A stretch of DNA of 64,000 bases, from the sequence record MT884006.2; one strand, given 5' to 3'. The notes under the pieces are model-generated. The model saw only the letters and a list, made by a program, of their open reading frames with translations, made no database searches and was not told the DNA's origin. How positions within the stretch are numbered: position 1 is the stretch's first letter; every line of letters begins with the position of its first letter. Below, piece after piece: positions 54,655 through 59,430 of this stretch. The position numbers and the translations under genes are program-made. This stretch comes from Escherichia phage vb_EcoM_bov9_1.

Positions 54655-54658
54655 CAAT

Positions 54659-54690
54659 GGGGACCTTTCGGTCCCCATATTTTTATTTAC
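54659..54690 (+). terminator. Intrinsic terminator after gene 54
   Basis: GGGGACC-TTTC-GGTCCCC hairpin followed by ATATTTTTATTT. Confidence 0.65.
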
Positions 54691-54973
54691 GGAATGAAAT
54701 GAAAGCAGAAACTGAAGCAACTAAACTGTCTTCAATATAAACTTCAATTTTTACCGGAGCTTCTGACTCAAATTTACCTGTTACTACACCCTGAAAAATG
54801 CTTTCAGTCTGTTCTGGCTTTGAAAAATTTTCAGAAGGGAAAATTCCGAACTTTTTATCTGTTCCAAAAATTTTAATAAATTCATCGTAAACTGCTTCAT
54901 TAAAAGCGTTATCAGCAGGAATAACGCCTTCAACTACAAGTTCTTGACCTAAAAAGCGCAAAGAAGATTTCAT
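54683..54973 (-). CDS. Hypothetical early protein
   Basis: 96 aa ORF with its own early-type promoter, between late genes 54 and the alt paralogue. Confidence 0.5.
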   Translation of the reverse strand: MKSSLRFLGQELVVEGVIPADNAFNEAVYDEFIKIFGTDKKFGIFPSENFSKPEQTESIFQGVVTGKFESEAPVKIEVYIEDSLVASVSAFISFRK

Positions 54974-55004: not shown

Positions 55005-55034
55005 ACTATAACACAACATAAGGAACTTGTAAAC
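55005..55034 (-). promoter_or_regulatory. T4-type early promoter (GTTTAC -35, 18 bp spacer, TGTTATAGT extended -10)
   Basis: Minus-strand reading GTTTAC-N18-TGTTATAGT about 30 nt upstream of ATG at 54973; -35 overlaps the alt paralogue stop codon. Confidence 0.55.
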
Positions 55035-57091
55035 TACATTTTGAACTTTTTAGACATTCCGTTGATGTTAACCAAAGAAGCTAAGATTTGAGAAACTTCG
55101 TTTTCCTCTTCTTTTGATTCTTCTACAAGGAATTGATTAAATCCAGCCATTGGACGAACTTCACCAGTTTCCATCAGATGGTCGCCATCATATACTGATT
55201 CTTCTAATTGTTCAGAAGGAGGAACGATTGTACCTTCGATTAGATACTTGTTATAAGCAGTTTCTTTCATCATGTACGTACTTACTTTATTAATCTTCAG
55301 TAAAATTCCACGCGGCAAAATAACTTCAGCTTCGGATGGAAATCCTGATAAATGACCTGGAACGATAACTTTAACTCGTTCAGCTCCTTTAATTACCATA
55401 CCTACATTAGTTTCAGCGTCTTCATTCGCATATGTAGAATGACTACCCATATGCATTAAATCTTCAGCATCAACTGAACCTTCTCCTTCACCAGAAAATA
55501 CTGCTCCGGAATCATCTAAGGCCATATAATTTTTACCATATTCACCGAAGATATTTGGCTTGAGTGAAGTAGATACAAAGTTCTTGAAATAGAACATTTT
55601 ATTTTCTATATTATGACGTAAAGTTTTAAAGGTAACTTCTTGCCCACGATAAAGAGTAGTTCCTGGAGGAAGAACTGAACCTTTAGAAAATGCAGAATCC
55701 AGCGTCTCAATATGTTTAATAGCTCGTTCCATATATTCTTCACGGGTAGAATCAGGTTTACCTAGAAGGAACGAGTTCATTTCAACATATGAATCTGCGC
55801 AATAATCTTCAATTACATCAGACTCAGCCTGAGTTAATCCTTTTGGAGTTACTTCAGTGCTTGCATATTCATATGCCTGAGCAGCAGATTCATCAATTAA
55901 TTTATAAATTCCATTCATTACAAATTGAATAATAGCTGTCTTTTCATCTGGTGTAGCTTTAGAACCTTTAACTAAATCATTGACAATTTTCTTAATAACA
56001 TCAAAGCTATTAGAAATATTAATGTCAGCAAGATCGCTTAAAATTTTATCAGTTTTATAATCAAAGAATTCTTTATTCTTTAAATATTCTTGAGAACCTT
56101 GATATGTTATATCGCTCTGCAGCTTGATAGATGGATCGCGTAAACGTGCATGGGCCAATGCAATATGATTTCGGAAGCTTTCGAGTTCATAATCACTAGA
56201 TTTAAAACGAGAAGCACTTCTCATACCACCGATAGCTCCTTTGCTAAAGTTTGAACCAACCTGAATAACGCCAGAGTTCATTGGTCCTTCTGCTTTATAT
56301 ACCGGAACTTTAGATTCAAACTCTTGATATTTCTTAGCAGCGAAGCTATCACCCTGAAGTGAAGCATCAACAGTAGAATATTGAGCTTGTGCTGCTAATC
56401 GACGACTAATTTTAGTTTTCTGAATAACAGCTTGATCCGTGCGCTTATCATTTTCTAAAGCAATAGAAGCAGCAACAGCAACAGCTTTAGGAACAGCATT
56501 ACCTGTTTTAACGTCTACATAAACATCACCAACCTTTGATTCAACTTTTGTGAATAACTCGGTTGAAATAGGAGGTACACCTGGAATGTCTTCTAAATTG
56601 GCATTTTTACGGTAAACCATAATATATGCGTACTTTTTATCATAATCCCAGATTTCCTTTAAAAGAACATATCGACCTGCTCCTTTAGTACGTACTAAAC
56701 GGTCAGCAATAACTTGCATTTGCCGAGCAGCGCCATTTGTTTTACTTTTTAGTACGCGGAATAAGCATGCATCAATTTTATACTGTTTCATTGTTTGAAG
56801 AGCAGTATCAAAAACAGCATTAATGACGCCAATTGGATTTCCACCCAAGTTTTTAAGCTTAACTAATGATAGTTTCTCATTAACACCTATCATTACGATA
56901 TGCATCATTTTGTCGCCTGGCTTAACGTTTTTATTCGTATCACCGCCAGAGGTGTATGTACAAAATCTAAATCCAGGAAGCACGCTTTCTTCACCTGCTT
57001 GAATAGCAAAAATTTGAGGTATTTTATGCTTAGGATTTAAGTTAACAACCGGCGCCGAAGCGCCGTCAAATAATTCTGTAATAAGTTCCAT
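55034..57091 (-). CDS. Alt-family ADP-ribosyltransferase, paralogue 2
   Basis: 685 aa; N-terminal about 230 aa highly similar to the adjacent alt (MELITELFD...), diverged middle region, C-terminal ART motifs LYR, FVSTSL and SEAEVILPRG. Confidence 0.8.
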   Translation of the reverse strand: MELITELFDGASAPVVNLNPKHKIPQIFAIQAGEESVLPGFRFCTYTSGGDTNKNVKPGDKMMHIVMIGVNEKLSLVKLKNLGGNPIGVINAVFDTALQTMKQYKIDACLFRVLKSKTNGAARQMQVIADRLVRTKGAGRYVLLKEIWDYDKKYAYIMVYRKNANLEDIPGVPPISTELFTKVESKVGDVYVDVKTGNAVPKAVAVAASIALENDKRTDQAVIQKTKISRRLAAQAQYSTVDASLQGDSFAAKKYQEFESKVPVYKAEGPMNSGVIQVGSNFSKGAIGGMRSASRFKSSDYELESFRNHIALAHARLRDPSIKLQSDITYQGSQEYLKNKEFFDYKTDKILSDLADINISNSFDVIKKIVNDLVKGSKATPDEKTAIIQFVMNGIYKLIDESAAQAYEYASTEVTPKGLTQAESDVIEDYCADSYVEMNSFLLGKPDSTREEYMERAIKHIETLDSAFSKGSVLPPGTTLYRGQEVTFKTLRHNIENKMFYFKNFVSTSLKPNIFGEYGKNYMALDDSGAVFSGEGEGSVDAEDLMHMGSHSTYANEDAETNVGMVIKGAERVKVIVPGHLSGFPSEAEVILPRGILLKINKVSTYMMKETAYNKYLIEGTIVPPSEQLEESVYDGDHLMETGEVRPMAGFNQFLVEESKEEENEVSQILASLVNINGMSKKFKM

Positions 57092-57094
57092 GAT

Positions 57095-59188
57095 TTATCC
57101 TTGAACGAACTTGTAAGGCATGTTTGTAATATCTATGCAAGACGCAATAATTCCAAGAGATGATTCTACTTTCTGTTTAATATTTGATGAAACAAATGAT
57201 GCAAAGTCAACTCTGTCTTCTATTTCAATATCACCTGTCATTGCAGCCAATTCACCAGTTTCCATTAAATGGTCTCCATCATAGATTACCGATTCGGTGA
57301 GCTCTTCCGTGGTCATAACTTCAGCTTGAATGAGTTTTGTATTATTAGATGTTGTTCCGTCATTATTAGAAGCATCGGTTATTTTATTAACTTTGACCAT
57401 CAATCCACGCGGTAGAATAACTTCAGCTTCTGTTGCTATTCCGAGACTTCCTGGATATACAACATTAACTTTATGAGCTCCATCAATTGCCCATCCTATT
57501 TGAACTTTAACATATTCAGGATTTTCTTTATACGCTCTTATTTCGTTTGGATTAATAGTTATTCCTTCTTCATTTTTATCAACTGTTAATTCATTGCGAG
57601 CTTCTGGTTCTAAAAGACCAATACCAGCATGTGTGATTCCAAAACGTCCAAAAATGATAGGAGTTAAAGAAGTAGATACAAAATTTCTGAAGTAGAACAC
57701 TTTATTTTTAACTAACGCTTCATATATAGGAGCAGTCATACTTTGAGCACGATAAACTGTAATGCCTTCTGGTATACGGTCACCATTTTCAAAAGCTGAA
57801 TCTAAGTTATTTATAGCAGATTCAATTTCTTTTTCACTCATTACATCGTATCGTTCTGGATTGTAACGACCTAAAAGAAGATTATTGATGTCAGTATATC
57901 CTGATCCACAATACTCTCTAATGCCGCGCTTTTGCGATGGAGTATATTTAGAACCATCACGTGCAATGGTAATATCAATCATTGGACCTGCACCAATTCC
58001 AGAAAAGCTATAAATCATTCGTTTGAGGAATTTAGTTTTTGCTGCGTTCCAGGAATTTTTAGTTATTTCTTCCCAGACTTCATCTGGCTGCCCTTTACGA
58101 GTTTTATTATGTTTATCAAGCCAATTATCTTTATATTCTTCAAATAATTGATTAACAGCTGCTGCGTATTTCTCTAAACATTTTATTGAAGTAGTTGGTT
58201 CATTTTTAATCGCATTAAGAATTACATCTTTAATTTTTTCAGAAACTTCATTAACCTCACTTTTTAAAAAGAATTTATAGTCATAGTGAAGTTCATCTGC
58301 GGTTCCTTCGGCAATAATTTTTGCTGCCTTAGTTTTAGAAGCTAATGAATTAATTCCAAGCTTCATTTCTTCTGCTTCGGGAATTAAAGGAGCTGTAGCA
58401 GGTTTATTGAAATTAGCTGCGGTAGATTCATATTTCTGGAATAATTCGCTTTCAAATCTAGAAGATTCTAATGACTGACTTTGTGCAATTGCTCTACGGG
58501 AAATTTTAACTTTAACGATAACAGCTTGGTCAGAGCGTTTATCATTTTCTTGTGCAATAGATGCTGCAATTGCCTCATTTTTAGTTACTTGAGCTCCAGT
58601 ATCTTTATTGATATAAACATCGCCGACTTTCGATTCAACCTTAGTAAAGAGCTCGGTACTAATTTCAGGAACTCCTGGAATGTCTTCTAGTGATACATTT
58701 TTGCGATGTATAAGAATATATGCGTACTTTTTATCATAATCCCAGAGTTCCTTAAGAAGGACGTATCTGCCACCTGAACGACTACGGATAAGTCTATCAG
58801 CAATAACTTGAATTTGTCGAGCTTGACCAGCAGTTTTAGACTTAAGAATACGAAGCATACAGGCATCAATTTTATACTGACGCATCGTCTGCATTGCAAC
58901 AGTAAAAACTGAATTGATGTAATTAATTGGGCTTGGACCGAGACCTTTTAATTTAGCAATTGAACCTTTAGCAGTTAATGTAAAAGGAACAATATGCATC
59001 ATTTTATCGCCCATTTTTAAATCGCGATTAGTATCACCTCCAGATGTATAGGTACATAAACGAAAGCCTGGTTGTTCAATTGCATCATCAACATGAACTG
59101 AAAAAATTTGTGGTATTTTCTTCTTTGGATTTAAGTTTGTAATCGGAAGAGTAGTATCTTCGTCAAATAATTCTGTAATAAGTTCCAT
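57095..59188 (-). CDS. alt: Alt ADP-ribosyltransferase (packaged, injected)
   Basis: 697 aa matching T4 Alt at N- and C-termini; ART motifs VYR, FVSTSL and EAEVILPRG; late promoter upstream. Confidence 0.9.
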   Translation of the reverse strand: MELITELFDEDTTLPITNLNPKKKIPQIFSVHVDDAIEQPGFRLCTYTSGGDTNRDLKMGDKMMHIVPFTLTAKGSIAKLKGLGPSPINYINSVFTVAMQTMRQYKIDACMLRILKSKTAGQARQIQVIADRLIRSRSGGRYVLLKELWDYDKKYAYILIHRKNVSLEDIPGVPEISTELFTKVESKVGDVYINKDTGAQVTKNEAIAASIAQENDKRSDQAVIVKVKISRRAIAQSQSLESSRFESELFQKYESTAANFNKPATAPLIPEAEEMKLGINSLASKTKAAKIIAEGTADELHYDYKFFLKSEVNEVSEKIKDVILNAIKNEPTTSIKCLEKYAAAVNQLFEEYKDNWLDKHNKTRKGQPDEVWEEITKNSWNAAKTKFLKRMIYSFSGIGAGPMIDITIARDGSKYTPSQKRGIREYCGSGYTDINNLLLGRYNPERYDVMSEKEIESAINNLDSAFENGDRIPEGITVYRAQSMTAPIYEALVKNKVFYFRNFVSTSLTPIIFGRFGITHAGIGLLEPEARNELTVDKNEEGITINPNEIRAYKENPEYVKVQIGWAIDGAHKVNVVYPGSLGIATEAEVILPRGLMVKVNKITDASNNDGTTSNNTKLIQAEVMTTEELTESVIYDGDHLMETGELAAMTGDIEIEDRVDFASFVSSNIKQKVESSLGIIASCIDITNMPYKFVQG

Positions 59189-59207
59189 GTTATCCTCTCT
59201 AGTGTTT

Positions 59208-59215
59208 ATTCTATT
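59208..59215 (-). promoter_or_regulatory. Late promoter TATAAATA (minus strand) for alt
   Basis: Plus TATTTATA equals minus TATAAATA, 20 nt upstream of ATG at 59188, with GAGAGGA SD between. Confidence 0.65.
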
Positions 59216-59244
59216 TATAAAATTAAAGGCCCGAAGGCCTTTAA

Positions 59245-59430
59245 TTAATAGAGAGCTAAAAGAGTACGATATACTTCAAACTTTGGACCTTTTTCATATG
59301 GATCAAATCTTTCCGTGAATTCATCATATGCTAGTTTATCTGGGAATTCAAGAATAACCTGCGATACCGCAGTGGAAACATCTCCACCTTCTTTTTGAGC
59401 CACGACAATTGTTTCTAAGTAAGCTTTCAT
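59245..59430 (-). CDS. Hypothetical protein
   Basis: 61 aa ORF overlapping the gene 30 stop. Confidence 0.45.
   Translation of the reverse strand: MKAYLETIVVAQKEGGDVSTAVSQVILEFPDKLAYDEFTERFDPYEKGPKFEVYRTLLALY

Follow-up and report, generated by a model that had tools for sequence, protein, structure and literature searches.

The alt locus considered here lies within a 64,000-nucleotide stretch of the genome of Escherichia phage vb_EcoM_bov9_1 (MT884006.2), referred to below as the window, and carries two adjacent, intact open reading frames (ORFs) on the minus strand, which we call alt (the upstream copy, 697 aa) and alt2 (the downstream copy, 685 aa). A preliminary description made from the sequence alone had reported a tandem pair of full-length ADP-ribosyltransferases of the Alt family at this position, both beginning with MELITELFD; the ORF list reproduces the two genes at exactly the same coordinates (Table 1), and both proteins do start with these nine residues. 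The junction between the copies reads TAA-atc-ATG, leaving a gap of only 3 nt. The flanking genes are those of the T4 alt locus, with DNA ligase (gene 30) and alt.1 upstream and alt.-3 and genes 54 and 48 downstream, so that the pair is situated between gene 30/alt.1 and alt.-3/gene 54 with a late promoter ahead of it. Escherichia phage vb_EcoM_bov10K1 (MT884007.2, Tequatrovirus), whose record labels both genes 'hypothetical protein', has an identical sequence (100%) over a region of 4.9 kb.

Both proteins match the family 'Alt-like RNA polymerase ADP-ribosyltransferase' (phrog_802) from end to end (residues 1-696 of 697 in Alt, E = 4.9e-272; residues 1-685 in Alt2, E = 4.5e-257), which bears out their assignment as full-length members of the Alt family. 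Pfam PF03496 (ADPrib_exo_Tox) scores 130 bits in Alt and 73.5 bits in Alt2, in both cases above its gathering score of 23.4 bits. The catalytic signature of arginine-specific ADP-ribosyltransferases that had been quoted from the two copies is present in each, as VYR480, S505-T-S507 and E587-A-E589 in Alt and as LYR482, S507-T-S509 and E587-A-E589 in Alt2, and the R, S-x-S and E-x-E columns are invariant in an alignment of 15 family sequences; a check of the second gene for inactivating substitutions found its catalytic residues intact. In a profile search of the PDB, the 'YR' and 'E-A-E-V-I-L-P-R-G' of the family align to the arginine and the Q/E-x-E of C3 (QYE) and CPILE-a (EYE). A sequence search of the PDB returned no solved Alt structure; the NAD-binding stretch of Alt weakly matched CdtA and iota toxin, and Alt2 gave no match in that search. 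NCBIfam likewise gave no match to either protein.

AlphaFold2 models, built on 15-sequence alignments (pLDDT 71.1 for Alt, 74.5 for Alt2), have in both cases an alpha/beta N-domain (about residues 15-216), an all-helical middle, an ADP-ribosyltransferase (ART) domain and a poorly ordered C-terminal tail. Foldseek matched the modelled ART domains to Vis, C3, Certhrax, CPILE-a, CDTa and VIP2, a C3/VIP2-like ART fold being predicted for both members of the pair. The stretch between S-T-S and E-x-E is highly variable in sequence and length among Alt, Alt2 and T4 Alt, and within it the models are poorly defined (pLDDT below 50 at residues 514-541 of Alt and 530-557 of Alt2).

Over their whole length the two proteins are 42% identical (BLASTP, E = 1e-160), with large differences from region to region. 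The preliminary description had noted about 230 nearly collinear N-terminal residues, conserved ends and unrelated central regions. Residues 1-238 are indeed 68% identical, with a single 1-residue indel, and conservation of the N-terminal end thus holds; that of the C-terminal end was overstated, as the tail is 43% identical and conservation between the paralogs is confined to the first ~13 residues of the C-propeptide, which include the common motif SV(I)YDGDHLMETGE, and to the last few residues. The ART domains are about 36% identical. Identity in the centre (about residues 239-416) is about 14%, with no BLAST match, and a profile comparison of the two centres found no similarity (hhalign probability 0.7%, E = 0.08); by sequence the centres are therefore unrelated, as had been stated. 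Both are nevertheless predicted to be all-helical, with a similar succession of helices in the two models, and the Alt2 model aligns over its full length to a distant Alt (SP18; Foldseek, TMq 0.57), observations that are only suggestive. Homology of the two centres is neither shown nor excluded by these comparisons, and they may be diverged homologs or replaced modules.

Mature T4 Alt enters the cell together with the DNA and there modifies one alpha subunit of RNA polymerase, at Arg265, by ADP-ribosylation, along with other host proteins, an activity known for T4 Alt only. T4 Alt is a non-essential protein of the head core, present in about 40 copies (PMC9026906), and its 68.2-kDa mature form arises when the gp21 protease acts at ITE-6 and LTE-619 (PMC5694885). 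Sequence motifs place candidate gp21 sites at ITE-6 in both window proteins and, aligned to LTE-619 of T4 Alt, at LTE-632 in Alt and LEE-631 in Alt2. E6 and E631/E632 are invariant in 15 homologs, and the conserved SV(I)YDGDHLMETGE follows the L-x-E site in both copies. The predicted mature sizes, 70.1 kDa for Alt and 69.1 kDa for Alt2, are close enough for the two to co-migrate on gels. Both proteins thus keep the two prohead-protease sites mapped in T4 Alt, the sole observation from which we infer, as the account that fits best, that both are packaged and injected.

A box matching TATAAATA, whose function as a late promoter is taken from the known T4 late-promoter consensus, precedes the pair; T4 and T2 conserve it, and JS98 and RB69 have CATAAATA instead. 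It had previously been placed at 59208..59215, 4 nt from where it really lies (59212..59219). The accompanying proposal, that one late promoter serves both genes, agrees with the single conserved box ahead of them and with the terminator scan, which found no terminator between alt and alt2. The window holds 27 exact TATAAATA boxes against 10.2 expected, a number reached by no shuffle and consistent with a T4-type late-gene region. Relative to both the window and T2, T4 has 5 extra bases in a repetitive stretch immediately 3' of the box (L001 6504..6560 compared with window 59189..59250). The Shine-Dalgarno sequence of alt2 lies inside the end of alt, which makes translational coupling plausible.

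Hairpins lie on either side of the probable transcription unit. The upstream one, with a UUCG loop, has a folding energy of -14.4 kcal/mol (z = -3.6; none of 200 shuffled sequences reaches this stability) and is conserved in T4, T2, JS98 and RB69; the terminator scan of the window did not list it, and it is probably a terminator or an RNA-stability element that divides the upstream unit from the alt promoter. The downstream one, between the convergent alt.-3 and gene 54, is probably a bidirectional terminator that would form the 3' end of an alt-alt2-alt.-3 transcript. The 60-nt spacer between alt2 and alt.-3 also contains a sigma-70-like promoter sequence (TTTACA and TATAGT separated by 17 nt, with a TG extension and 10 of 12 positions matched; 55005..55033, minus strand), which is kept in the T4 remnant region as well, and alt.-3 may have an early or middle start of its own. 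A sigma-70 promoter scan was uninformative (20 sites, 19.7 expected).

Table 1. Features of the alt locus in the window (positions in MT884006.2 window coordinates; aa, residues of the encoded protein)
Feature	Position	Strand	Remarks
UUCG-loop hairpin	59221..59246	-	directly after the stop codon of alt.1 (Phage_blade)
Late promoter box TATAAATA	59212..59219	-	23 nt upstream of the alt ATG
Shine-Dalgarno GAGAGGA for alt	59193..59199	-	read directly; kept in T4 and T2
alt (upstream copy)	57095..59188	-	697 aa, ortholog of T4 Alt
alt N-propeptide	59171..59188	-	aa 1-6
alt N-domain	58475..59170	-	aa 7-238
alt helical centre	57941..58474	-	aa 239-416
alt ART domain	57293..57940	-	aa 417-632
alt catalytic R480	57749..57751	-	
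alt catalytic S505-T-S507	57668..57676	-	
alt catalytic E587-A-E589	57422..57430	-	
alt C-propeptide	57098..57292	-	aa 633-697
Shine-Dalgarno AAGGA for alt2	57098..57102	-	within the last alt codons, 6 nt before the alt2 ATG
alt2 (downstream copy)	55034..57091	-	685 aa, intact form of the T4 alt.-1/alt.-2 remnant
alt2 N-propeptide	57074..57091	-	aa 1-6
alt2 N-domain	56378..57073	-	aa 7-238
Base missing in T4	56932	-	A5 run, A4 in T4
Left 9-bp direct repeat CTAAAAAGT	56753..56761	-	
alt2 helical centre	55844..56377	-	aa 239-416
alt2 ART domain	55199..55843	-	aa 417-631
alt2 catalytic R482	55646..55648	-	
alt2 catalytic S507-T-S509	55565..55573	-	
alt2 catalytic E587-A-E589	55325..55333	-	
alt2 C-propeptide	55037..55198	-	aa 632-685
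Right 9-bp direct repeat CTAAAAAGT	55054..55062	-	
alt.-3 homolog (DUF5498)	54683..54973	-	96 aa; next gene, same strand; context only
GC-rich hairpin	54657..54678	both	perfect 9-bp stem flanked by T-runs; alt.-3 and gene 54 converge on it

Alt is the positional and sequence ortholog of T4 Alt (NP_049811), to which it is 70% identical overall in a mosaic fashion (N-domain about 100%, centre 32%, ART 64%, C-propeptide 93%). At the second position T4 has only the short ORFs alt.-1 and alt.-2 (NP_049810, NP_049809), as the preliminary description had correctly stated; a note in the T4 GenBank entry attributes them to an ancient duplication of the initial part of alt. At the DNA level this remnant matches the first 347 nt plus the last 14 nt of alt2 at about 96% identity. 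T4 has a clean deletion of 1,699 bp, corresponding to window positions 55054..56752 and bounded by the copies of CTAAAAAGT, and it has also lost 1 bp from an A-run, which shifts the reading frame and breaks the remnant into two ORFs, alt.-1 and alt.-2. These two ORFs are the remains of a full-length paralog, not a partial duplication of alt. A remnant of the T4 type is ruled out for alt2 itself, since in the window the A5 run is whole and none of the 1,699 bp is missing. Two families of 61 and 67 positions on which Alt2 outscores Alt, phrog_23015 and phrog_15247 (138 and 131 bits versus 78 and 70), probably represent alt.-1 and alt.-2.

The same tandem pair is found in JS98 (Dhakavirus; EpJS98_gp194 and gp193), and RB69 (Mosigvirus) has one gene. 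Alt is closest to the first JS98 gene (centre 33%, ART 61%) and Alt2 to the second (centre 43%, ART 58%); since centre and ART domain group by orthology with the JS98 genes, the duplication predates the split of Tequatrovirus and Dhakavirus. The N-domains are more alike within a genome (68% identity between the paralogs in the window, 65% in JS98) than between orthologs of the two genera (42-47%), which indicates concerted evolution of this domain. Four homologs with an alt2-type centre and ART domain (P0003, P0004, P0005 and P0007) have N-domains that are 76, 85, 93 and 98% identical to that of Alt, and the first three of these show the Alt2 N-domain partly converted, in graded steps, into that of Alt. 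The fourth is a hybrid on a metagenomic contig (L005 5001..7061) with a crossover near nt 660; in a second hybrid, from phage ECML-134 (NC_025449.1, L006 3602..5662), the first ~450 nt are of the alt type and the sequence thereafter is of the alt2 type. Both are single genes that sit directly after alt.1, and they represent independent unequal crossovers between the N-domain segments of the paralogs, which delete the body of Alt and are direct evidence of exchange.

In tblastn searches of about 499 related phage records, an alt2-type centre of at least 90% identity is present in 401, about four in five, including T2, RB7, RB14, RB18 and RB51. A contiguous junction of the T4-type deletion is seen in 91 of the 499; the ECML-134 hybrid junction occurs in 3 only, the single Alt/Alt2 hybrid gene being that of ECML-134 (deposited twice) and SCS4. 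Alleles of the Alt centre form discrete classes, namely the window type (at least 90% identity, 318 records), a ~65% class (60-80%, 38 records) and the T4 type (about 30%), the last of which can also coexist with an intact alt2, as it does in phage G9062. The centre of Alt2, by contrast, hardly varies, with 95-99% identity in 371 records. Compared with its T2 ortholog, alt2 has 94 synonymous and 14 non-synonymous differences (dS 0.248, dN 0.0087, ratio 0.035), and all of its segments are constrained, the centre at a ratio of 0.07-0.12. We conclude that alt2 is under strong purifying selection; its 685-codon ORF is intact, as had been described, and the dN/dS ratio to the T2 copy indicates that it is not decaying.

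In Tequatrovirus and Dhakavirus the locus normally carries the tandem pair; laboratory T4, which has lost most of the second gene, departs from this rule. Both the pair and its interpretation are already known from database annotation and from two publications. T2 has the same pair at 95-100% identity (its alt2 being EcT2_00208), the BASEL records (Bas38, Bas39, Bas41, Bas43) annotate 'ADP-ribosyltransferase Alt' and 'Alt2', the 'alt.-2' of RB14 and RB51 is the same gene in the same position as alt2, and RefSeq names both genes 'Alt-like RNA polymerase ADP-ribosyltransferase'. Nolan et al. 2006 (PMC1524935) described alt paralogs in T4-like phages, with a full-length duplicate in phage 44RR, and a 2026 paper (PMC13600099) reports 'two paralogous Alt-like proteins' of 43.29% identity and offers the speculation that the range of targets is thereby widened. 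In the literature searched we found no paper that links the name 'Alt2' to this enzyme, nor any experiments on Alt2 or on whether virions contain it.

The N-domain shows weak fold matches only. It corresponds to PF26846 (Tevenvirinae_ADPRT), an annotation precomputed for the homolog P0001, whose N-domain is 100% identical to that of Alt2, and recorded for all full-length homologs listed, being unrecorded only for the truncated P0008 and P0010. When residues 1-238 were searched against 1.84 billion representative proteins, 69 matches were returned, nearly all of 600-712 residues, and 6 of 10 scanned N-domain relatives contained PF03496 (these six having 563-786 residues). The domain is thus almost confined to ART-bearing Alt-like proteins and is family-specific; the idea of a general capsid-delivery module with varied cargo was rejected on this ground. 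Among the distant N-domain relatives, P0184 (541 aa) has the N-domain and the middle domain without ART, while its close relative P0187 (786 aa), with a similar tail, has ART, and the motifs of P0183 are degenerate, with LYK for YR, TSCS for STS and N-S-E for E-x-E. In Acinetobacter phages ZZ1 and Henu6, whose BFVD entries are named 'split RNA polymerase ADP-ribosylase', and in Citrobacter phage CF1, which has two short 'RNA polymerase ADP-ribosylase' entries in BFVD (392 and 315 aa), two ORFs appear to share the Alt architecture between them.

From these observations we infer that the locus is probably the ancestral two-gene form of the Tevenvirinae alt locus, comprising alt and its old paralog alt2, and that the two genes form a co-transcribed pair encoding packaged, processed and injected arginine-specific ADP-ribosyltransferases that probably differ in their targets. 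One late transcript would run from the box at 59212..59219 through both genes, each with a separate ribosome-binding site. Each product would begin with a 6-residue N-propeptide ending in ITE, followed by a basic alpha/beta N-domain, an all-helical middle, a C3/Vis-like arginine-specific ART domain and, after the L-x-E site, an acidic C-propeptide. Both proteins would be packaged and processed, ejected with the DNA, and would ADP-ribosylate host proteins in the first moments of infection, with Alt and Alt2 presumably modifying different or only partly overlapping sets. Such a division of targets is the most likely outcome given centres without detectable similarity and ART domains of only 36% identity. 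The central region may be the part that recognizes targets, as had been presumed, although the diverged ART domains could equally carry specificity.

Several points weigh against this interpretation. We found no direct evidence for expression, packaging, cleavage or activity of Alt2, and both structure models are of moderate confidence (pLDDT 74.5 and 71.1). A second exact TATAAATA lies inside alt (57808..57815, minus strand, codons A-I-N-N, residues 458-461) and could act as an internal late promoter that gives alt2 a transcript of its own, or it may be a mere by-product of the coding sequence. Finally, either body is dispensable in nature, as phages of the T4 type do without Alt2 and ECML-134 and SCS4 have a single hybrid with the Alt2 body; this means that neither enzyme is essential and that the two may be partly redundant.

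The strongest competing view, which we regard as a serious contender if not quite a probable one, is that specificity resides in the ART domain, in the variable loops between S-T-S and E-x-E, with the centre serving as a linker or as an auto-inhibitory or packing element. It competes only with the idea of the centre as the target-recognition part. For C3, iota and other toxins of the R-S-E type, it is the catalytic domain that recognizes the substrate, with the ARTT loop in C3-like toxins. The high variability and low pLDDT (below 50) of the S-T-S to E-x-E stretch and the 36% identity of the ART domains point in the same direction, whereas it is the centre that is most diverged, both between the paralogs and among Alt alleles (32% against 93-100% in the flanks), a pattern that fits a host-facing surface under diversification. 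It seems unlikely that Alt2, though packaged and injected, has essentially the same targets as Alt and provides an extra dose or a backup. Either copy has been lost in some natural phages, architecture, catalytic motifs and processing sites are common to both, and T4 Alt is itself non-essential (PMC9026906); yet the duplicates are old and common to Dhakavirus, with ART domains of only 36% and centres of about 14% identity, and Alt2 is conserved at 95-99% in 371 records with a dN/dS of 0.035. Simple redundancy does not predict the long-term retention of two such diverged copies.

We give still less weight to an Alt2 that is not injected, acting late in the producing cell or as a non-enzymatic component of the head core. 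No proteomic evidence was found for Alt2 in virions, as this account would have it, but the N-propeptide MELITE is the same as that of Alt, whose ITE-6 cleavage is mapped, the L-x-E site and SV(I)YDGDHLMETGE are conserved, and the same late promoter lies ahead; the invariant catalytic residues argue against a purely structural role in particular. Hardly any credence attaches to Alt2 as a decaying duplicate on its way to the T4 state. In its favour, nothing but remnants is left in T4 and 90 other records; against it, the gene is found in about 80% of related records, and for the window decay is refuted by the intact 685-codon ORF, the intact and invariant catalytic motifs and the dN/dS of 0.035 (94 synonymous versus 14 non-synonymous differences to T2).

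On a Mokosh type I host, growth is restored by T4 Alt and not by Bas37 Alt (bioRxiv 10.1101/2025.11.20.689424); Alt alleles are thus unequal against Mokosh type I, and divergence at the alt locus has phenotypic consequences. It is tempting to speculate, although we consider it doubtful on balance, that Alt2 acts as another injected effector, directed at host targets of its own, for example in a counter-defence role distinct from that of Alt, and that the locus is a two-slot cassette for injected ADP-ribosyltransferases. The second enzyme would then have gone unstudied because T4 lost it by microhomology deletion; its mature form would moreover run together with that of Alt on gels of T2-like virions, and gene conversion would keep the N-domains similar while the effector parts diverge.

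As a discovery the pair matters little, being the usual state of the locus and already annotated. To our knowledge, all Alt biochemistry comes from T4, which is among the minority of phages without Alt2. This leaves a blind spot, in that the biochemistry rests on an Alt2-less phage while Alt alleles differ in their effect against Mokosh type I. Two aspects of the locus are sharpened here, namely that alt.-1/alt.-2 of T4 derive from a full-length gene lost by a deletion between 9-bp repeats, and that the N-domains of the paralogs evolve in concert and serve as recombination sites, giving rise to single hybrids such as that of ECML-134.

Among known systems, ModA and ModB of T4 likewise belong to the R-S-E ADP-ribosyltransferases encoded by this phage group and have host proteins as their substrates. 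They are proteins of about 200 aa, made early, not packaged and encoded elsewhere, whereas the window genes encode the full Alt architecture in 685-697 aa, and an enzyme of the ModA/ModB type is ruled out for either. The C3, Vis, iota-Ia and VIP2 toxins (PF03496) have the catalytic fold and motifs in common with Alt and Alt2; the phage proteins add the N-domain, the helical middle and two propeptides that would be removed by protease, and by analogy with T4 Alt they would be delivered from the capsid, whereas the toxins are secreted. T4 Alt itself resembles the alt product in its ITE-6 and LTE sites, its R/S-T-S/E-x-E motifs, its late promoter and the upstream hairpin, and differs from it in the centre (32%) and the ART domain (64%), which makes the two different allele classes. 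Alt2 of the BASEL phages, EcT2_00208 of T2 and 'alt.-2' of RB14 and RB51 are the same gene in the same position at 95-100% identity, with no difference of substance. The JS98 pair has the same tandem layout with orthologous centres and ART domains, and differs in that its N-domains follow the genome in which they reside rather than orthology.

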